A DNA stretch of 64,000 nt, taken from Klebsiella phage vB_KpM_FBKp24. Position numbers and translations under genes: made by a program. Positions 40,514 through 60,032 of this stretch are shown here, one piece after another; the first letter of the stretch is position 1; the number at the start of each line of letters is the position of its first letter. The notes under the pieces were generated by a model that saw nothing but the letters and a program-made list of their open reading frames with translations, was not told the origin of the DNA and did no database searches. Location: sequence record MW394391.1, one strand, 5' to 3'.

Positions 40514-40682
40514 AAAGGGAAGAGCTTACGCCCCTCCCTCAGCCCGAGTAATTGAATGTCTCACGACAAGCAACGTCGTATTGTTGCCACGCTGATTTCT
40601 CAGACGAAGCTACCGCGCTGGCATCGCAGTTCGGTTAACAGGTGGTGCTGTTCATAAGACAGCACCCGACTGTAAAATTAAA

Positions 40683-40835: not shown

Positions 40836-40888
40836 GGTATTTTACCTTTAAAAAATAAGATTAACTGATTCATAAAAATAACAGCATA

Positions 40889-40913
40889 AAGAGAGGGCCT
40901 TCCGGCCCTCTCT
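40889..40913 (-). terminator. Rho-independent terminator closing the minus-strand tRNA transcript
   Basis: Hairpin agagagggcc-ttcc-ggccctctct followed on the minus strand by a T-rich tract (tttatgctgttattttta). Confidence 0.65.
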
Positions 40914-41671: not shown

Positions 41672-41761
41672 TGGCAGAGAGTGAGAGATTTGAACTCTCG
41701 GTACCCTTTCGGATACATTCCCTTAGCAGGGGAACGACTTAAACCACTCATCCAACTCTCT
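41672..41761 (-). tRNA. tRNA-Ser(GCT)
   Basis: Acceptor AGAGAGT/ACTCTCT, anticodon arm TTCCC-CTGCTAA-GGGAA, long variable arm, T-arm GAGAG-TTCAAAT-CTCTC, CCA encoded. Confidence 0.75.
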
Positions 41762-41770
41762 ATTAAAATG

Positions 41771-41844
41771 CGACTCTTCCAGGACTTGAACCTGGGACCT
41801 ACAGCTTAACAGGCTGCCGTTCTAACCAACTGAACTAAAGAGTC
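41771..41844 (-). tRNA. tRNA-Asn(GTT)
   Basis: Acceptor GACTCTT/AAGAGTC, anticodon loop CTGTTAA, T-arm CCAGG-TTCAAGT-CCTGG. Confidence 0.7.
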
Positions 41845-41850
41845 ATTATT

Positions 41851-41925
41851 TGGCGGTGCTACGGAGAATCGAACTCCGGTCTCCTCCGTGACAGGGAGGT
41901 ATCCTTTCCGCTAGACGATAGCACC
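41851..41925 (-). tRNA. tRNA-Asp(GTC)
   Basis: Acceptor GGTGCTA/TAGCACC, anticodon arm CCTCC-CTGTCAC-GGAGG, T-loop TTCGATT, CCA encoded. Confidence 0.75.
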
Positions 41926-41933
41926 TTTTTGTT

Positions 41934-42035
41934 TGGTTGTTCCCTTCCGGATTTGAACCGGCAACCTCCTGCTAAGCAGTGGGCGGCGCAGTGGCCGCCG
42001 GTGCAGGCGCTCTACCTAGTTGAGCTACGAGAACA
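41934..42035 (-). tRNA. atypical about 100-nt tRNA-like gene (anticodon unresolved)
   Basis: 7-bp acceptor TGTTCTC/GGGAACA plus ACCA, D-arm GCTC-AACTAGGTA-GAGC and T-arm GCCGG-TTCAAAT-CCGG, but the anticodon region carries a 22-nt GC-rich insertion. Confidence 0.35.
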
Positions 42036-42042
42036 TAGTATC

Positions 42043-42116
42043 TGGAGCAAGCAGCGAGGTTCGAACTAGGGGTACGGGGATCAAAGCCCCGGGCCTTAAC
42101 CGCTTGGCTATGCTCC
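42043..42116 (-). tRNA. tRNA-Gln(TTG), possibly degenerate
   Basis: D-arm AGCCAAGCGGTTAAGGC and anticodon arm CGGGG-CTTTGAT-CCCCG resemble enteric tRNA-Gln. The T-stem and acceptor pair imperfectly, so it may be a pseudogene. Confidence 0.5.
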
Positions 42117-42124
42117 TATGCGTT

Positions 42125-42208
42125 TGGTGGGGAAGGGTAGATTCGAACTACCGAAGCCGAAGCAGCAGATTTACAGTCTGACCCATTTGACCACTCTGGA
42201 ACTTCCCC
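42125..42208 (-). tRNA. tRNA-Tyr(GTA)
   Basis: GGGGAAGTTCCAGAGTGGTCAAATGG...CAGACTGTAAATCTG...GGTAGTTCGAATCTACCCTTCCCCACCA closely resembles enterobacterial tRNA-Tyr (type II), CCA encoded. Confidence 0.8.
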
Positions 42209-42391
42209 TGAATTTGGGGCCCGATTATTTCAGCGCTGCATTCTTTACTCTCGGGCCGAGGAGCACTATTAGTTTCTTCTCAGGGCGTATTGTTTTCCCT
42301 CTGAGACTTGCGCAATGTTTGAACAGGTTGATTGTTGTCTTAACATTCCGGAGAGAAAGTTACAATCTTTGTTCATAAGATATTGATTTAC

Positions 42392-42751
42392 TTAATTTTT
42401 GATCTGCACATCAGGATTCCCATTAACCGACAGCCAAATGTCGGCAACTAAAAGAATCTGTCCACCATACTGATTGACCTGCTGCCACCCATTCTTTTTA
42501 GCGGCAACTGTAATCATTGATAAAAATTGATTTTTCCAATGACTTTGATAAATCTGGGAATGATGAATTATTCGGCGGTTTTCAAACTTCTCGATGGTCT
42601 CAAATTCTTTCGTCGCGCTGATCATAGCAAAAACATCTTTAGACTTGATCAAATAAGCAGGGTCATTAATAGACCGATCGGAAGCTAAAGGAAGACGAGA
42701 AGAAATATGGTCAACGTCTTCTTGATTGTGTGCAAACGTTACGTCGTTCAT
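42392..42751 (-). CDS. hypothetical protein embedded in tRNA island (119 aa)
   Basis: ORF. Confidence 0.45.
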   Translation of the reverse strand: MNDVTFAHNQEDVDHISSRLPLASDRSINDPAYLIKSKDVFAMISATKEFETIEKFENRRIIHHSQIYQSHWKNQFLSMITVAAKKNGWQQVNQYGGQILLVADIWLSVNGNPDVQIKN

Positions 42752-42833
42752 TTTTACTTTTACCTTTTACAAGTTAGCGGTCTAAACCAAAATAGGAAGA
42801 CCAACAAAAACTGTGGGATGAATAATAATGAAG

Positions 42834-42907
<74 letters not shown>

Positions 42908-42912
42908 GTAGA

Positions 42913-42997
42913 TGGTGCCCAGGGCGGGGCTCGAACCCGCACGCGATAAAGCGAGGGATTTTAAATCCCTTGTGTCTGCCGATTTCACCACCTGGGC
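42913..42997 (-). tRNA. tRNA-Leu(TAA)
   Basis: Type II. Acceptor GCCCAGG/CCTGGGC, anticodon arm AGGGA-TTTAAAA-TCCCT, T-arm GCGGG-TTCGAGC-CCCGC, CCA encoded. Confidence 0.7.
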
Positions 42998-43002
42998 AAA
43001 TA

Positions 43003-43078
43003 TGGTGGGTCCAGCAGGTTTTGAACCTGCGACCAAGCGATTATGAGTCGCCTGCTCTAACCACTGAGCTATGGACCC
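43003..43078 (-). tRNA. tRNA-Met(CAT) (elongator/initiator/Ile2 not distinguishable)
   Basis: Acceptor GGGTCCA/TGGACCC, D-arm GCTCAGTGGTTAGAGC, anticodon loop CTCATAA, T-arm GCAGG-TTCAAAA-CCTGC, CCA encoded. Confidence 0.75.
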
Positions 43079-45736: not shown

Positions 45737-45793
45737 ATTGCCCTCGTTTTACAGTCTTCTACACTAAAAGACTGCACCGTAAAAAAGCATAAT

Positions 45794-45984: not shown

Positions 45985-46078
45985 CTAGTGCTCTACCAGC
46001 TGAGCTATCTGCCTCCAAGAAACACTCTGTGAATGTGTCCTGGTAGGCAGAGCGGAATTCGAATCCGCGACCTCTAGA
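45985..46078 (-). tRNA. permuted or fragmented tRNA-like locus (3' half upstream of 5' half on the coding strand)
   Basis: Minus-strand 3' half TCTAG-AGGTC-GCGGA-TTCGAAT-TCCGC-TCTGCCT-A-CCA (46041-46078) is followed after a 25-nt spacer by the 5' half AGGCAGA-TA-GCTCAGCTGGTAGAGC-A-CTAGA (46015 down to 45985). The acceptor and anticodon-stem halves are mutually complementary. Confidence 0.4.
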
Positions 46079-46189
46079 ATTCTTTCCGTAAAAGAAAGAA
46101 AGTTCAGTCCGCTATTTTACTGTCTACTCTTTATCTTTAAGCGTGTGAGGCGATAAGATAAAGTTAACACTAACCATCCGAGTAGCATT

Positions 46190-47137: not shown

Positions 47138-47213
47138 TTAATTTCCTTACGATAAGAGTGAGAATAACGTCTGTTCATAGACTAGTTATCACCGTAAAAA
47201 AATAAAAAAAAAA

Positions 47214-55282: not shown

Positions 55283-56239
55283 TTAATCGGGTAACTTCTT
55301 AGTAAACTGGTAACGGAATAACTCCGTTTCAATAATGGGGAAGTAAGAACGATTCCGATATTCCAACAAAATCAGATTATGGTAAAATATCGCTTTCTTA
55401 AACTCCGCATCTGATTGTTTACTGGTACGAAATTGATACAGAGAAGGGCGATCGTTATACCCTCGACCCAAGGAAACAATCAGATTAATGAGCTTCTCTT
55501 GAGTGTCTATTCCGTCCAGAGATTCACAATGATCAAAATAGCTTTTATAAACATTATCAGACGGGTCTAAGACGAACCGATAGAAATTAAATCCCGAATG
55601 TCTAATGGTCAGTTGGTATTGTTCTGGACATTTAAAAACCTCTTGAACTGAAACTCCCGTAAGGAATTCTTCGTCTACTGAATCAGCATCAGTAGTGAGT
55701 AGCTCAACAACAGATTCTTCGGGTGATAAGGCTGCTAACTGACGATCCTTAGTCCCTTGAATATTAGCAATGACCGCCTCCAGTTCAGGGTCTTTTGGTC
55801 GTGCCAATAATCCCACATCGATACCAGCCCCAGAATGAATCCCTCCCCCTGTCTTTAACTCGAGAATCATATTTTTTATCTGCTGTCGTGAATACGTCGT
55901 TAATGTCGTATCATCGTAAAACAACTGCCTATGACAATATTCCGCTTCAGCAAAAGCGTTAAGTAAACCAATGAGAGCATTGATATTCTCCTCATTTTTG
56001 TCAGTAGCGTTGAACGGTGCTGATACCACGATATTAGGGCGAAAGAAAAGGTCGCCAGGTAACCGCACTAATGTCCCGCTATTCAGTCCATTGAACTGAA
56101 TACCTAACCGATCAAATCGGTTTATCCAAGGACACCCCTTGGCATTGGTCAATGCAATTCGGAGATTTTGTTCCGGGAAATAATGGTCTAATGTTTTACC
56201 GTCAGAGGTGTCTACGACCCGATACAGAACTTTTTTCAT
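55283..56239 (-). CDS. hypothetical protein (318 aa)
   Basis: ORF. Confidence 0.55.
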   Translation of the reverse strand: MKKVLYRVVDTSDGKTLDHYFPEQNLRIALTNAKGCPWINRFDRLGIQFNGLNSGTLVRLPGDLFFRPNIVVSAPFNATDKNEENINALIGLLNAFAEAEYCHRQLFYDDTTLTTYSRQQIKNMILELKTGGGIHSGAGIDVGLLARPKDPELEAVIANIQGTKDRQLAALSPEESVVELLTTDADSVDEEFLTGVSVQEVFKCPEQYQLTIRHSGFNFYRFVLDPSDNVYKSYFDHCESLDGIDTQEKLINLIVSLGRGYNDRPSLYQFRTSKQSDAEFKKAIFYHNLILLEYRNRSYFPIIETELFRYQFTKKLPD

Positions 56240-56499
56240 TTCCTATCTCCCCCACCCAAGTACTTCAAGTTAGCAACAAAACCGCTCTTGGCTAATGACG
56301 ACAAATCCTTCTGACCGATCAGACGAAGAAAGGTACGGTTAACTACCGCGTTAGCTCGTATACCTACCGGGAGTTTACCTATCTCCCGTAAAGCGAGTTT
56401 GATACGCGTACGGAACGTTTTACACAGATTTTCATCAAAACGTGCAATCGCCTTTACTTCTGCCTCAATGACTTTCATGTTCATTCTCTTTCTCCTCAA
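56236..56499 (-). CDS. hypothetical protein (87 aa)
   Basis: ORF coupled by ATGA. Confidence 0.45.
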   Translation of the reverse strand: MRRKRMNMKVIEAEVKAIARFDENLCKTFRTRIKLALREIGKLPVGIRANAVVNRTFLRLIGQKDLSSLAKSGFVANLKYLGGGDRK

Positions 56500-56509
56500 A
56501 TTACTGTTA

Positions 56510-56875
56510 TCAGTGTTTCGTTAATAAAGGTAAAAGTTCCTCTGGGAACTCTGCTAAGGGGCGTTTCTCGCCGTCACTTCTCATGGCCACGGGAAAACCT
56601 TGTTGACTATACCCCACTACCTTAACGAGACAAATACTTGAAACGTGCCCCGCTTCAAAAACGGTTCCGTTCTTCGCCAGCCAATACTCGATAATCGTTT
56701 TCTCAGTAAAGAAATCTTTAGCCGTTGTGAGAAAACACTCAGGCGCCTCCGTATGCGTTTTAAATACTACAAGGTAATATTTATCGATTAACAGCTGATC
56801 GATGCTTAGAGAGACGTTCAGAAACGATTCAGGTCGTTTTAACTGTGTCTCGGTAATGTCAATGGAAACTTTCAC
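56510..56875 (-). CDS. hypothetical protein (121 aa)
   Basis: ORF. Confidence 0.45.
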   Translation of the reverse strand: MKVSIDITETQLKRPESFLNVSLSIDQLLIDKYYLVVFKTHTEAPECFLTTAKDFFTEKTIIEYWLAKNGTVFEAGHVSSICLVKVVGYSQQGFPVAMRSDGEKRPLAEFPEELLPLLTKH

Positions 56876-56890: not shown

Positions 56891-57337
56891 TTAGAAATAC
56901 AAATGAATATCCACTAAAGATACCCCTAAAACCTCATCGGTCATACGACGAACCGTTACCGGGTCTAACTTCCCATTCCCGCACCCCAGATGCGACATCG
57001 CCAATGTATTAATCCCGTAACGTTCTATTGCTACGGCAATGTGTTCCAAACAGCTTTTAACCCATTCGTACCGAGAAGGGTAACGCCAATGGTCTTTAGT
57101 GGCGACGAGTAATAATTTCGTTCCATCTTTCGCGGTCGTGTACCAGCACATACCGGGTTTCCAATACCCTTTCCCGCATTGTTCTTTGTACTTAGAAAAC
57201 ACCTCAGGATGTCGTTGTTTGGCCTCCAGTGCAATGCCTGTACCCATCACCCCTACGCAGTTTACCGTTACGACCTTGACGGAATCTTCTACTTCGTCTT
57301 CGAATAGATTTCCTTTGCGTAATAATATTACCGCCAT
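56891..57337 (-). CDS. macrodomain protein, TARG1/DarG-type ADP-ribosyl hydrolase-like
   Basis: Aligns along its whole length with TARG1-type macrodomains: GNLFE...VNCVGVMGTGIALEAKQRHPEVF (TARG1 [22 protein letters not shown]), VATKDHWRYPS (catalytic Lys region), LAMSHLGCGNGKLD (SMPRIGCGLDRL). Confidence 0.75.
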   Translation of the reverse strand: MAVILLRKGNLFEDEVEDSVKVVTVNCVGVMGTGIALEAKQRHPEVFSKYKEQCGKGYWKPGMCWYTTAKDGTKLLLVATKDHWRYPSRYEWVKSCLEHIAVAIERYGINTLAMSHLGCGNGKLDPVTVRRMTDEVLGVSLVDIHLYF

Positions 57338-57814
57338 GTATTCTTCCCCTTACGCTTTCTGAAATTTTAGAGCATAAATCGCAGCCCTTTACGGACTACG
57401 CTAAATAAAAAATTATTTAATACATAAAAAATGATTGCCCTAAAAGAATAGGTCAACCCCGGGTAATCGGCAAGGATGTCGTTCGGTCCACACGTTCTCG
57501 CTCCGTTCCGTATCCTCTCCCTCTACGAGTGTGAGTCTACTACACTACTCTCGCTCGTGTTCCCCTCTCTCCTCTCTTCTTGCCGATTCCAATTTTGTTC
57601 ATAGAAATATAAGGAATAATTTTTTAAATTTCCAGAGAGGAATGGTAATGACTCTCTCTGAAATCTATCAGATTGAGTAAGCGATTTCTTTACAGGTTAA
57701 ATGTATTTTAACAGTAGAAATAAACTATGTTAAATTTCGATCAGAAATTTTCTCTACACTTACCGTAAGGTATAAGCTTCGCTGTTCGGTATATGTGAAT
57801 AGGCGGCGAGGTGT
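57338..57814. ncRNA. ORF-free structured region, candidate noncoding RNA
   Basis: 477 nt without an ORF of 60 aa or more in a tightly packed genome. A 10-bp inverted repeat aatcggcaag (57465-57474) / cttgccgatt (57579-57588) brackets a pyrimidine-rich CT tract. Confidence 0.3.
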
Positions 57815-58279
57815 TTAGCGCGGGCGAGCGAGGCCGCTGGCGAGGAGTCGATGGCAATCCGCCAACAGCGATAAACGATAAGGTGTAAAGTTAGCTTCAG
57901 TCAATACACCGTTATCGATTAACCGTTGGAAGAAGATACCCGAGGCAAAATCCCAAGGACACCAAAATGTTTTCCGTTCATTTGCTAATGCTAATGCCTC
58001 AGTCACTAAACGCTGCGCGATTCCTGTACCACGTAGCGACTTCTTAACGTAGAGCATTGCCGTGTAGACAAAATTTCCGCCATTTCCATCTGGTATTAAG
58101 ACGCAAACCGCCTGATAGGTATTCTTCCCTTCCGGAGAATAGAATACCGCTTTACACGGCCATTCCCCAGTACGCTGCTCATAGATTCCCTCTAGCATTT
58201 TCCCTTTTAGTAGATACAGTTCATGCTCTAAACACAAACGGTAAATTTCATTAGACCCTTCAATAACACTGTAACCCAT
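57815..58279 (-). CDS. GNAT-family N-acetyltransferase
   Basis: Motif LRGTGIAQRL (R/Q-x-x-G-x-G/A) with the GNAT beta-strand pattern. Confidence 0.7.
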   Translation of the reverse strand: MGYSVIEGSNEIYRLCLEHELYLLKGKMLEGIYEQRTGEWPCKAVFYSPEGKNTYQAVCVLIPDGNGGNFVYTAMLYVKKSLRGTGIAQRLVTEALALANERKTFWCPWDFASGIFFQRLIDNGVLTEANFTPYRLSLLADCHRLLASGLARPR

Positions 58280-58459
58280 TCTAAAATCCCCTGTACGCCA
58301 TTCTTAGCAATTGAATCGTATAATCCACCTACTTAGTCACCTAAACGAATCAAAGCGGTTAGCGTGAGTTATACTCAGCCATAGGGCTATCAATAGAGTG
58401 ATATATACTTCAAGTCCAATCGAAATTAGAGCTAATTCCTCCCTCAACATTGGCACAGA

Positions 58460-58488
58460 CAGAGGAGAGGGGACTACCCTCTCCTCTG
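58460..58488. terminator. terminator-like hairpin downstream of helicase gene
   Basis: Hairpin cagaggagaggg-gacta-ccctctcctctg followed by ttatgtttt. Confidence 0.55.
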
Positions 58489-58502
58489 TTATGTTTTAAC
58501 GG

Positions 58503-60032
58503 TTAAATGATCTGATCTAAATGTGCGGTTCGGGTACTTAACACGCGTCCTCTGAATAAGGCTTCTTTACTCCGCATGTAATCGAGGTGTTTATCGATAT
58601 TCATGCAAACAAAGCAGTGATAACTTTGAGGAACCTTTTTCTCCCCTTTCAATTCACGCAATCGCCCTAGCGCTTGAATGTTTGCGTTCGGTGAATCGAT
58701 CGCAACAGTTAAATACGCCTGAGTCAGATCGGGAATGTCTACGGCTGTACCCGATTTACCTATAGTACTAAAGATAATATCTGAGTCGAGAAGAATTTGG
58801 TAATCATCACCAGAAGTAAAAGAATTAATCACCAGACCCGGTTGACGTTTACGAAAAGTTTCCGTCAAACGTGTACACATCTCTATCGTTGCTGAGAAGA
58901 TCAATAGCTTGTGTTCAGGTTTCCGAGTACCAAGCCAGTTACTTTCCGTGTACGAATACAGCGCTTCGTGCCATCTTCGCTCTCTTTCTTTATCCGCCAT
59001 GATCCAAGCTTCATACGTCGTGTGACTGTAAGAACCTTGACCACCAACCACTTTCGCTTTCTGCCAATCTTTCAAGTTATATTGAACTTTAACCAGATCG
59101 ACGTAGACGTTGATCTTCCCTCCCTCCTTACGACATCGTTTAGGAAGGAACGTTTCGTAGATGAATAGTTGGAAATCCATCTTAGCGAAAAGCGTTGCTG
59201 TCAGATAGATCTTTTTAGGAACATGAGAATAAAGATCACTGATAAAGTGTAGATGAGTTTCTTTGTGCGCTTCATCAGTTATGACTAGCCCTATACCAAG
59301 AATCTCCCATAAATCGCGAGGGTGTATATCTTCACACCCCGATCCCACAACTTTTCCGTTACTCCAGTTTTTATAAAAATCCCTTAAGGTTGCAGTGGAT
59401 ATGAATATTGCTTTAACCTTGTCAATCCCTTTGTCTTTCACTTCTCTGAGCAGACGGTAGAGTTTAGTGCAACCGCAACAGGAACGAACTTCTTCGGGTT
59501 TGAGATTGAGCTTCTCGTAGAATTCAGGAATCCATCGATCTTCGTACCCGCCTAATGTAACAACAGCAAAACGTGTACCATTATTTTTAGCCATCGCCAA
59601 TGAACAGGCGGTCTTACCAAAACCGGCTTGAGCAGTGATAACTTTTTGAATCCCTGGCTCCGAACCAAAATCGATAATGGGAACTTGGTTTTCCCAAGGC
59701 GTGAATTCCATTTCGAATTCTACCTTGACAGGCTCGAACATGGGGACGTCTATGATCTCAACTTCGCACCCGTTCCATTGGAATTTTTCCGCCTCTTTTA
59801 AGAACCGTTCCAGTGCGTTGATGTGAAATGAAACGCATTCCGTTTCGAGATCGCGACGAGCATAAACTTTCGTGGGTTCCATTCGAAAACGCCCGTGTTT
59901 CTTTACTAGCGATTTCTCAATAAAATGTTCAGTGAATTGTCGACGGAATTGTCGACCTTTCGCGGTGGGTGCAAAGACCTCGAAATAATGGCTGTACTTA
60001 GTAATACGCAGATCCAATGTCTTAGCCCTCAC
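58503..60032 (-). CDS. SF2 DEAH-box helicase
   Basis: Walker A AQAGFGKTA, motif II VITDEAHKE, motif VI QALGRLREL. Confidence 0.7.
   Translation of the reverse strand: MRAKTLDLRITKYSHYFEVFAPTAKGRQFRRQFTEHFIEKSLVKKHGRFRMEPTKVYARRDLETECVSFHINALERFLKEAEKFQWNGCEVEIIDVPMFEPVKVEFEMEFTPWENQVPIIDFGSEPGIQKVITAQAGFGKTACSLAMAKNNGTRFAVVTLGGYEDRWIPEFYEKLNLKPEEVRSCCGCTKLYRLLREVKDKGIDKVKAIFISTATLRDFYKNWSNGKVVGSGCEDIHPRDLWEILGIGLVITDEAHKETHLHFISDLYSHVPKKIYLTATLFAKMDFQLFIYETFLPKRCRKEGGKINVYVDLVKVQYNLKDWQKAKVVGGQGSYSHTTYEAWIMADKERERRWHEALYSYTESNWLGTRKPEHKLLIFSATIEMCTRLTETFRKRQPGLVINSFTSGDDYQILLDSDIIFSTIGKSGTAVDIPDLTQAYLTVAIDSPNANIQALGRLRELKGEKKVPQSYHCFVCMNIDKHLDYMRSKEALFRGRVLSTRTAHLDQII

Follow-up and report, generated by a model that had tools for sequence, protein, structure and literature searches.

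A predicted AdfM-type macrodomain gene and an adjoining conserved noncoding block in the Klebsiella jumbo phage vB_KpM_FBKp24

Results

The window analysed here is a stretch of 64,000 nucleotides (nt) of Klebsiella phage vB_KpM_FBKp24 (sequence record MW394391.1). On its minus strand it encodes a 148-aa macrodomain protein (macro), which, judged from its sequence, is likely to be an anti-DarT2 DNA ADP-ribosyl glycohydrolase of the AdfM type and a further member of this described family. The assignment is based on the fold, the protein family, the active-site residues, the homology to a validated AdfM and the phage family, all of which were established in this analysis. The gene was taken from the list of open reading frames (ORFs):

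56891-57337, minus strand: macro (adfM-like) gene, 148 aa, ATG start, ribosome-binding site AAGGGGAAG

The macrodomain is of the DarG type

The 148-aa protein matched the Pfam family Macro with an E value of 7.8e-10 (39.2 bits; cut-off 22). A phmmer search of the PDB returned the DarG macrodomains of Mycobacterium tuberculosis (Mtb; E 5e-20) and Thermus aquaticus (E 2e-18) as top matches, followed at lower ranks by the DarTG fusion 7OMU (E 9e-11), TARG1 (E 2e-4) and Poa1p (E 5e-3). The alignments were close to full length and covered residues 7-137 with Thermus DarG and residues 7-147 with TARG1. An AlphaFold2 (AF2) model calculated from 23 homologues reached a predicted local distance difference test score (pLDDT) of 93.8. 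With this model, Foldseek ranked the DarG macrodomains 5m3e, 5m3i and 5m31 first, with template modelling (TM) scores of 0.90-0.91 and E values of about 1e-15, and TARG1 next, with a TM score of 0.85. The Foldseek comparison of the macro protein extended over 151 columns.

Among the family models, the PADLOC DarG model matched with an E value of 6.5e-38 at positions 2-143 of 329, and the NCBIfam model antitoxin_DarG with 4.6e-37 at positions 3-146 of 338; the next NCBIfam macro family reached 0.0066. The antitoxin_DarG score of 128.1 lies below the equivalog (full-length) cut-off of 250. Because the DarG models match only in their first 143-146 positions, the protein corresponds to the macro part of DarG and lacks the DarT-binding part.

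The active site was compared in an alignment of five proteins, namely the window protein, PhiKZ gp104, Thermus DarG, Mtb DarG and TARG1. The key residues of the window protein are N26, K81, W84 and G118-G122. Asn26 corresponds to N22 of Thermus DarG and N23 of the PhiKZ protein, whereas TARG1 carries a serine (Ser35) at this position. The catalytic lysine K81 is equivalent to K80 in Thermus DarG, K78 in PhiKZ and K84 in TARG1. Trp84 is found as W83 in Thermus DarG and is replaced by alanine (Ala90) in TARG1. The GNG loop matches Thermus G119-G121, where TARG1 has Leu-Asp, and the position of the catalytic Asp125 of TARG1 is Gly122 in the window protein. Wherever DarG and TARG1 differ, the window protein sides with DarG, and N26, K81 and W84 are unchanged in 23/23 family members. 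Thermus DarG is inactive as K80A and strongly impaired as N22A, the second most harmful exchange (PMC5179494). The DarG tryptophan (Thermus W83) has been proposed to stack on the modified thymine.

Clearly, the macrodomain is of the DarG type and not of the TARG1 type, because the Asn, the Trp and the GNG loop follow DarG and Asp125 of TARG1 is replaced. An earlier note on this DNA, made from the letters and their ORFs, had placed the protein in a joint TARG1/DarG subclass; the DarG half of this assignment stands (E 5e-20, TM 0.91), while the TARG1 half has to be dropped (Asp125 to Gly122). Of the catalytic Lys and Asp to which the note had pointed, the lysine is present (K81) and the aspartate is not, Gly122 being found in its place as in DarG. 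As for the possibility that the protein belongs to a clade devoid of catalytic residues, N26, K81 and W84 are kept and Foldseek lists DarG first.

Relationship to AdfM and proposed function

A phage macrodomain of this kind has been described for PhiKZ, in which gp104 is a DarG2-like macrodomain named AdfM, an abbreviation of 'anti-DarT factor macro' (Morgan et al., Cell Rep 2026, PMC13309987). PhiKZ AdfM, with N23 and K78 in its active site, strips the DarT2 ADP-ribose from a DNA oligonucleotide and rescues DarT2 toxicity, and PhiKZ requires AdfM on DarTG2-carrying hosts (PMC13309987). The protein is present in about half of the chimalliviruses, and import into the phage nucleus (PicA pathway) was seen by microscopy for the AdfM proteins of PhiKZ, PhiPA3 and Asesino (PMC13309987). 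Independently, T4 Tk.4 was given the name AdfM, as its knock-out sensitises T4 to DarTG2 (HIDEN-SEQ, bioRxiv 10.1101/2025.11.20.689424). The statement of the earlier note that it knew of no such characterised phage factor is thus overtaken by PMC13309987 and bioRxiv 10.1101/2025.11.20.689424.

For comparison, the gp104 protein was translated from the sequence printed in PMC13309987. By BLASTP it showed 33% identity to the window protein (E 2e-23); N26 and K81 align with N23 and K78, and both proteins share the motif 'TKD.WR'. Together with the DarG hidden Markov models (HMMs; about 1e-37) and the conserved Asn, Lys and Trp, this homology strongly backs the proposal made in the earlier note that the gene may provide a stand-alone DarG-like phage antidote to DarT.

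The phage family is the same. The region is 98.8% identical at the DNA level to Klebsiella phage vB_KpM_Centimanus (299.7 kb) and, in parts, 77-81% identical to the Siatvirus group, which includes KpLz-2_45 and MJ359. NCBI taxonomy assigns both Siatvirus and Centimanus, a member of the genus Maaswegvirus, to the Chimalliviridae, the nucleus-forming jumbo phages, and split RNA polymerase (RNAP) beta genes adjoin the locus. The phage is a Klebsiella chimallivirus. In vB_KpM_FBKp24 (phiKp24), the protein identical at 100% to that of the window bears the annotation 'macro domain containing protein'.

On this basis the following mechanism can be proposed. DarT2 of the host would ADP-ribosylate thymidines of single-stranded phage DNA. 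The phage macrodomain would hold the ADP-ribose in a pocket formed by N10, T24, N26 and G118-G122, with the modified thymine stacked on W84, and would use K81 to cleave the ribose-thymine bond. Such cleavage would render the phage DNA replicable and packageable again. By analogy with PhiKZ AdfM, the site of action is probably inside the phage nucleus. Substrate, target system and phage-nucleus localisation are what we infer for the window protein.

Several points weigh against this assignment. The anti-DarT activity of the window protein is a prediction from homology, and the validated AdfM is 31-33% identical. The substrate range of macrodomains cannot be predicted in full from the sequence: thymidine-linked ADP-ribose is also cleaved by TARG1 and SCO6735, and RNA or protein could be substrates of DarG-like folds. 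Mapped by hand, two pocket positions of Thermus DarG are changed in the window protein (K29 to T33 and Q34 to E38), and K29E impairs Thermus DarG (PMC5179494); PhiKZ AdfM likewise lacks a lysine equivalent to Thermus K29 and has an alanine. Orthology with PhiKZ gp104 is supported by sequence and not by gene position, because the genome position differs from that in RAY. Finally, the summary of 116 plasmid tblastn matches contained no Klebsiella entry.

The lack of a Klebsiella DarTG2 match in this summary would also suit another explanation, whereby the macrodomain reverses an ADP-ribosylation other than that of DNA by DarT2, be it on mRNA (CmdTAC type), on a defence-modified protein or on the targets of an ADP-ribosyltransferase of the phage itself. 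The TARG1/DarG branch of macrodomains shows catalytic versatility, and in the structure search TARG1 came directly after DarG (TM 0.85); yet all three positions that distinguish DarG from TARG1 (Asn, Trp and GNG loop; 3/3) are DarG-like, and the DarG HMMs match at about 1e-37 compared with 0.0066 for the next NCBIfam macro family. Some Streptomyces phage homologues lie under features annotated as ADP-ribosyltransferase, whereas Pfam found no ADP-ribosyltransferase domain in the five flanking genes of the window. Both phage homologues that have been tested (2/2) act against DarTG2. We therefore regard this explanation as unlikely and favour an AdfM-type glycohydrolase directed at DarT2-modified DNA.

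Distribution of DarG-like macrodomains

Of 50,697 cultured phage genomes, 255 contain a homologue of the macro protein by tblastn (E of at most 1e-8). The carriers include PhiKZ-like Pseudomonas phages, Erwinia RAY-like phages, SPN3US, 201phi2-1, Moabite and E. coli podophages; in IMG/VR, at least 328 loci encode macro relatives. The E. coli podophages are SU10-like with genomes of about 77 kb, and the matching Streptomyces phage feature bears the annotation 'ADP-ribosyltransferase'. Because podophages and Streptomyces phages carry homologues, orphan DarG macrodomains are not confined to jumbo phages. The numbers of genomes and IMG/VR loci, small podophages included, support the notion that phages are widely under pressure from DNA ADP-ribosylation.

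The closest plasmid (cellular) homologues, with 37-41% identity, adjoin DUF4433/DarT genes and are genuine DarG antitoxins. In the window, the Pfam domain DUF4433 (DarT) had no match in the five flanking proteins, and a PADLOC scan of one flanking gene, that of the GNAT, gave no match.

Gene order and the GNAT neighbour

The macrodomain gene, a noncoding gap of 477 nt and a GNAT gene, as reported in the earlier note, were all recovered (ORF list; Pfam Macro and Acetyltransf_1). The neighbouring features are:

57815-58279, minus strand: GNAT gene, 154 aa (ORF list and Pfam)
57338-57814, minus strand: intergenic gap between GNAT and macro, 477 nt (ORF list and gene maps of relatives)
56510-56875, minus strand: p121, first gene downstream of macro (ORF list)
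56236-56499, minus strand: p87, between p121 and p318 (ORF list)
55283-56239, minus strand: p318, last of the three genes downstream of macro (ORF list)

On the minus strand the order is RNAP beta, RNAP beta', helicase, GNAT, gap, macro, p121, p87 and p318. The last four genes are closely packed, with spacers of 15, 10 and -4 nt, and macro leads this run after the gap. The earlier note had put macro at the end of an operon; the order is the reverse, macro being the first minus-strand gene after the gap. The genes p121, p87 and p318 accompany macro across the clade, as seen by tblastn synteny, and have no Pfam or PHROG matches.

The 154-aa protein matched Pfam Acetyltransf_1 with 25.6 bits (cut-off 20.7) and contains the acetyl-CoA motif R83-G-T-G-I-A, in which R83, G84, T85, G86 and A88 are invariant in the family. 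Among 5.8 billion proteins its homologues formed four clusters, each from this phage clade. A sequence search of the PDB gave no informative matches, and the AF2 model (pLDDT 86) matched generic GNAT folds weakly (TM about 0.5). The protein is a divergent GNAT-fold acetyltransferase, which the sequence and fold searches placed in no specific subfamily.

Serratia phage Moabite and the metagenomic relative L006 each have a GNAT orthologue (31% and 39% identity, respectively) directly upstream of macro and overlapping it, and the entire arrangement from RNAP-helicase to macro is syntenic in the phages having the GNAT. Using a custom GNAT HMM, the gene was found in 8 of 93 macro loci, all within the syntenic clade, and it is also present in L094 and L095; in L005 macro is kept and the GNAT is absent by tblastn. 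We examined a functional coupling of GNAT and macro, as suggested in the earlier note, and rejected it: the pairing is confined to one syntenic clade, and tblastn, HMM, protein and fold searches gave no support. Beyond the inherited gene order of one clade, a functional link is unsupported, and a terminator-like hairpin lies between the two genes.

These data also bear on the idea that the macro protein is a metabolite enzyme, either an O-acetyl-ADP-ribose deacetylase or an ADP-ribose-1''-phosphate phosphatase, perhaps paired with the GNAT. The term 'phosphatase' in database annotation (PHROG 335, GenBank), which would fit such an enzyme, is a legacy name of macro domains. Weak Poa1p matches were obtained (E 0.005-0.012), but DarG outscores the Poa1p and MacroD-type models by 30 orders of magnitude. 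The overlapping GNAT orthologues of Moabite and L006 could point to a pairing, but the GNAT family is restricted to the syntenic clade, L005 has macro without it, and 477 nt with the terminator-like hairpin separate the two genes in the window. GNATs use acetyl-CoA; O-acetyl-ADP-ribose is a product of sirtuins and not of GNATs. A metabolite enzyme is thus highly improbable compared with the AdfM-type function.

A conserved noncoding block upstream of macro

The gap at 57338-57814 contains no ORF of 50 aa or more and ranks among the longest gaps without tRNA genes in the 64 kb. Its macro-proximal part harbours a conserved block with the following features:

57365-57633, minus strand: conserved noncoding block, about 270 nt (blastn, alignments)
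57596-57605, minus strand: promoter-like motif YTATGAACA, putative start G 57600, conserved in all haplotypes
57579-57590, minus strand: 5' arm of a 12-bp closing stem, GGAAUCGGCAAG (RNAfold, RNAalifold)
57463-57474, minus strand: 3' arm of the 12-bp closing stem (RNAfold, RNAalifold)
57380-57400, minus strand: terminator-like 8-bp hairpin followed by (A/U)UUUAUG (terminator scan)
57369-57378, minus strand: second TATG promoter-like motif, TTTATGCTCT, 32-41 nt upstream of the macro start codon and directly past the hairpin

The block is 85% identical to Siatvirus and 88% identical to the metagenomic relative L094. The macro gene beside it shows 68% DNA identity, and no alignment was obtained for the other 150 nt or so of the gap. 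In relatives, one or two extra genes (226-242 aa) are located between gap and macro, and these are cleanly missing in the window lineage and in Centimanus. Four related lineages have an extra gene of 225-239 aa, to which L094 adds a second one of 242 aa; the 225-239-aa gene has no Pfam, PADLOC or NCBIfam match. Their positions upstream of macro are:

L002 4442-5122; L004 5272-5991; L005 5311-5988; L094 3634-5067: extra gene(s)

The motif TATGAACA occurs six times in the window, and four of these six copies are noncoding and lie upstream of minus-strand genes or tRNAs. The noncoding copies of YTATGAACA, all on the minus strand, are at 57596-57605, 47172-47181, 42370-42379 and 40649-40658, and one of them falls in a gap of the tRNA cluster. 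The late promoter of PhiKZ is T(-3)ATG(+1) (PMC7598289), and TATG is contained in YTATGAACA, which is a candidate TATG-type phage promoter of this chimallivirus. A repeated AT-rich early-promoter motif was also looked for by k-mer counting over the whole window, and none was found; the recurring TATG-type motifs emerged only from the comparison of intergenic regions.

Downstream of the first motif, the 12-bp stem closes a purine-rich core and shows one compensatory change between window and Siatvirus (U-A to C-G). The stem of the 8-bp hairpin is retained in three haplotypes through wobble pairs and compensating changes, and TTTATGCTCT is invariant in the alignment of the block. At three intergenic sites of the minus strand (40883-40889, 45786-45792 and 57371-57377), a G+C-rich hairpin is followed immediately by TTATGCT, which looks like a combined terminator and restart signal.

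The putative transcript from 57600 to 57373 (minus strand) has a predicted folding energy of -65.2 kcal/mol (z score -3.55), and none of 200 shuffled sequences folds as well. The 181-nt core alone is of ordinary stability (z -0.35 for the minus strand and -1.7 for the plus strand). The description of the gap as structured in the earlier note is therefore adequate for the transcript and not for the core alone.

The block is probably a regulatory region of the macro operon. It would comprise a TATG promoter, about 230 nt of structured leader or small RNA, a terminator and a second start. A rather unlikely alternative is that the gap is a functionless deletion scar or a decaying pseudogene left by the loss of the extra gene(s). 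It would explain why one or two genes lie between gap and macro in relatives and not in the window, but the block aligns with the intergenic DNA upstream of the extra gene(s) and not with the p226 gene, and tblastx of the gap against L001-L006 gave no coding similarity. That the close relative L004 has no such gap and that the core alone is thermodynamically ordinary speak for a scar; on the other hand, the 85-88% identity of the block exceeds by far that of the adjacent 150 nt of the gap and of the flanking genes, the stems still pair despite substitutions, and the motifs recur at other gene starts of the window.

The interpretation as a regulatory region also has to be seen against the occurrence of the block. 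It is missing from the otherwise close relative L004, and L094, Maaswegvirus and Siatvirus were its only carriers among up to 95 loci searched with blastn, tblastx and an nhmmer profile. A scan of IMG/VR with 22-mers for copies of the block gave KpYy_2_45 alone, and of two 20-mer scans of JGI metagenomes one gave nothing and the other a single chance match. Claims on covariation and structure of the block are weak because there are effectively about three haplotypes, and recent exchange by recombination among co-infecting phages could, instead of selection, account for its high identity.

With regard to known RNAs, Rfam gave nothing at the gathering score in 57338-57814 and nothing credible at E values up to 10, the best sub-threshold match in the gap being SNORA27 with 24.7 bits (gathering score 64); ARAGORN found no tRNA or tmRNA in the gap. 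We consider it improbable that the unit 57600 to 57373 is a genuine phage noncoding RNA or a cis-acting leader specific to Klebsiella chimalliviruses. Such a unit might tune the expression of the anti-DarT gene or might itself be an RNA counter-defence.

Small ORFs within the block were rejected as unproven. A 42-aa ORF on the plus strand (57476-57604) and a 20-aa ORF on the minus strand have no usable ribosome-binding site; both remain open in relatives, with approximately four synonymous to six non-synonymous changes (hand count). The template strand of the core is the most pyrimidine-skewed 130 nt of the window and contains eight TNTC (DarT2-type) motifs, which corresponds to the 99th percentile. 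As a link to DarT this enrichment was dismissed, since it lies below the window maximum and is accounted for by the pyrimidine skew. A DNA-damage-sensitive leader, suggested by the TNTC richness of the core template strand, is speculative.

Other features of the window

Directly past the stop codon of the helicase gene, a strong 14-bp hairpin (GACAGAGGAGAGGG...CCCTCTCCTCTGTT) is located at 58458-58490, which is probably the terminator of the RNAP-helicase unit. The UvsW-like helicase (58503-60032, minus strand) has 509 aa in the window. In relatives it is longer; the MJ359 and L005 proteins have about 700 aa, and that of KpLz-2_45 (L003) has an annotated length of 656 aa:

L002 6235-8340; L003 7204-9174; L005 3155-5257: longer helicase genes

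After residue 140, the longer helicases have about 590 nt of additional sequence, which may represent an intein or an extra domain and is lacking in the window lineage. In the metagenomic relative L094, a 145-aa gene with a YagK_YfjJ_C domain (1890-2327) is located between helicase and GNAT. Because this gene is inserted there, the interval from helicase to macro is a hot spot of accessory genes.

Eight tRNA genes are clustered at 41672-43078 (minus strand). Within the cluster, a 97-nt tRNA match at 41938-42034 was reported by Rfam alone, and a tRNA-Gln at 42043-42117 by ARAGORN alone. About 3 kb off this main cluster, ARAGORN identified a tRNA with the anticodon UUA ('tRNA-Stop', ochre-suppressor-like) at 46041-46125 (minus strand), for which Rfam gave no report at the gathering score.

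Significance and comparison with known systems

The concept of a phage-borne orphan DarG macrodomain as an antidote is already published, and the window gene adds one example to it. It extends the AdfM family to Klebsiella nucleus-forming jumbo phages (phiKp24/Centimanus and Siatvirus), which are candidates for phage therapy, and knowledge of such anti-DarTG2 enzymes helps to forecast their host range among DarTG2-positive strains. Some novelty remains only in the noncoding block, which provides a lead on how transcription is organised around accessory genes in chimalliviruses.

Among the known systems, PhiKZ AdfM is comparable in that both proteins are stand-alone DarG2-like macrodomains of about 150-160 aa encoded by genomes of the Chimalliviridae, and the PADLOC DarG model matches both at about 1e-38, in each case with its macro half alone. 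They differ in a 9-residue insertion before the GNG loop, which is present in gp104 and absent from the window protein. The gene neighbourhood differs as well: the window gene is located downstream of the RNAP-helicase-GNAT cluster, whereas the RAY gene lies between UvsX-like and DprA-like genes.

With bacterial DarG (5M3E, 5M3I) the window protein shares 36-38% identity, a TM score of 0.91, the Lys, the Asn, the thymine-stacking Trp and the GNG loop. Bacterial DarG has about 330 aa with a C-terminal DarT-binding domain, while the window protein with its 148 aa has no such domain. In contrast to DarTG2 loci, no darT is adjacent to the window gene among the five flanking genes. Because the protein is encoded by a lytic phage, it would represent an orphan mimic of an antitoxin and not a component of a toxin-antitoxin system.

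T4 Tk.4 is likewise a phage macrodomain, structurally similar to Mtb DarG and needed on DarTG2 hosts, but belongs to a far more distant macro lineage; its homologue (245 aa, 19% identity) ranks 23rd in the viral fold search. TARG1/OARD1 has the macro sub-fold (TM 0.85) and the position of the catalytic Lys in common with the window protein. It relies on a Lys84 and Asp125 dyad and carries Ser35 and Ala90, where the window protein has Gly122, Asn and Trp, and in sequence it matches 16 orders of magnitude less strongly than DarG. AdfN (NADAR) and AdfA/AdfB resemble the proposed function as orphan antitoxin-like enzymes or inhibitors that counter DarT. Their folds, however, are unrelated to the macrodomain, and AdfN targets the guanine ADP-ribose of DarT1 and not the thymidine ADP-ribose of DarT2.

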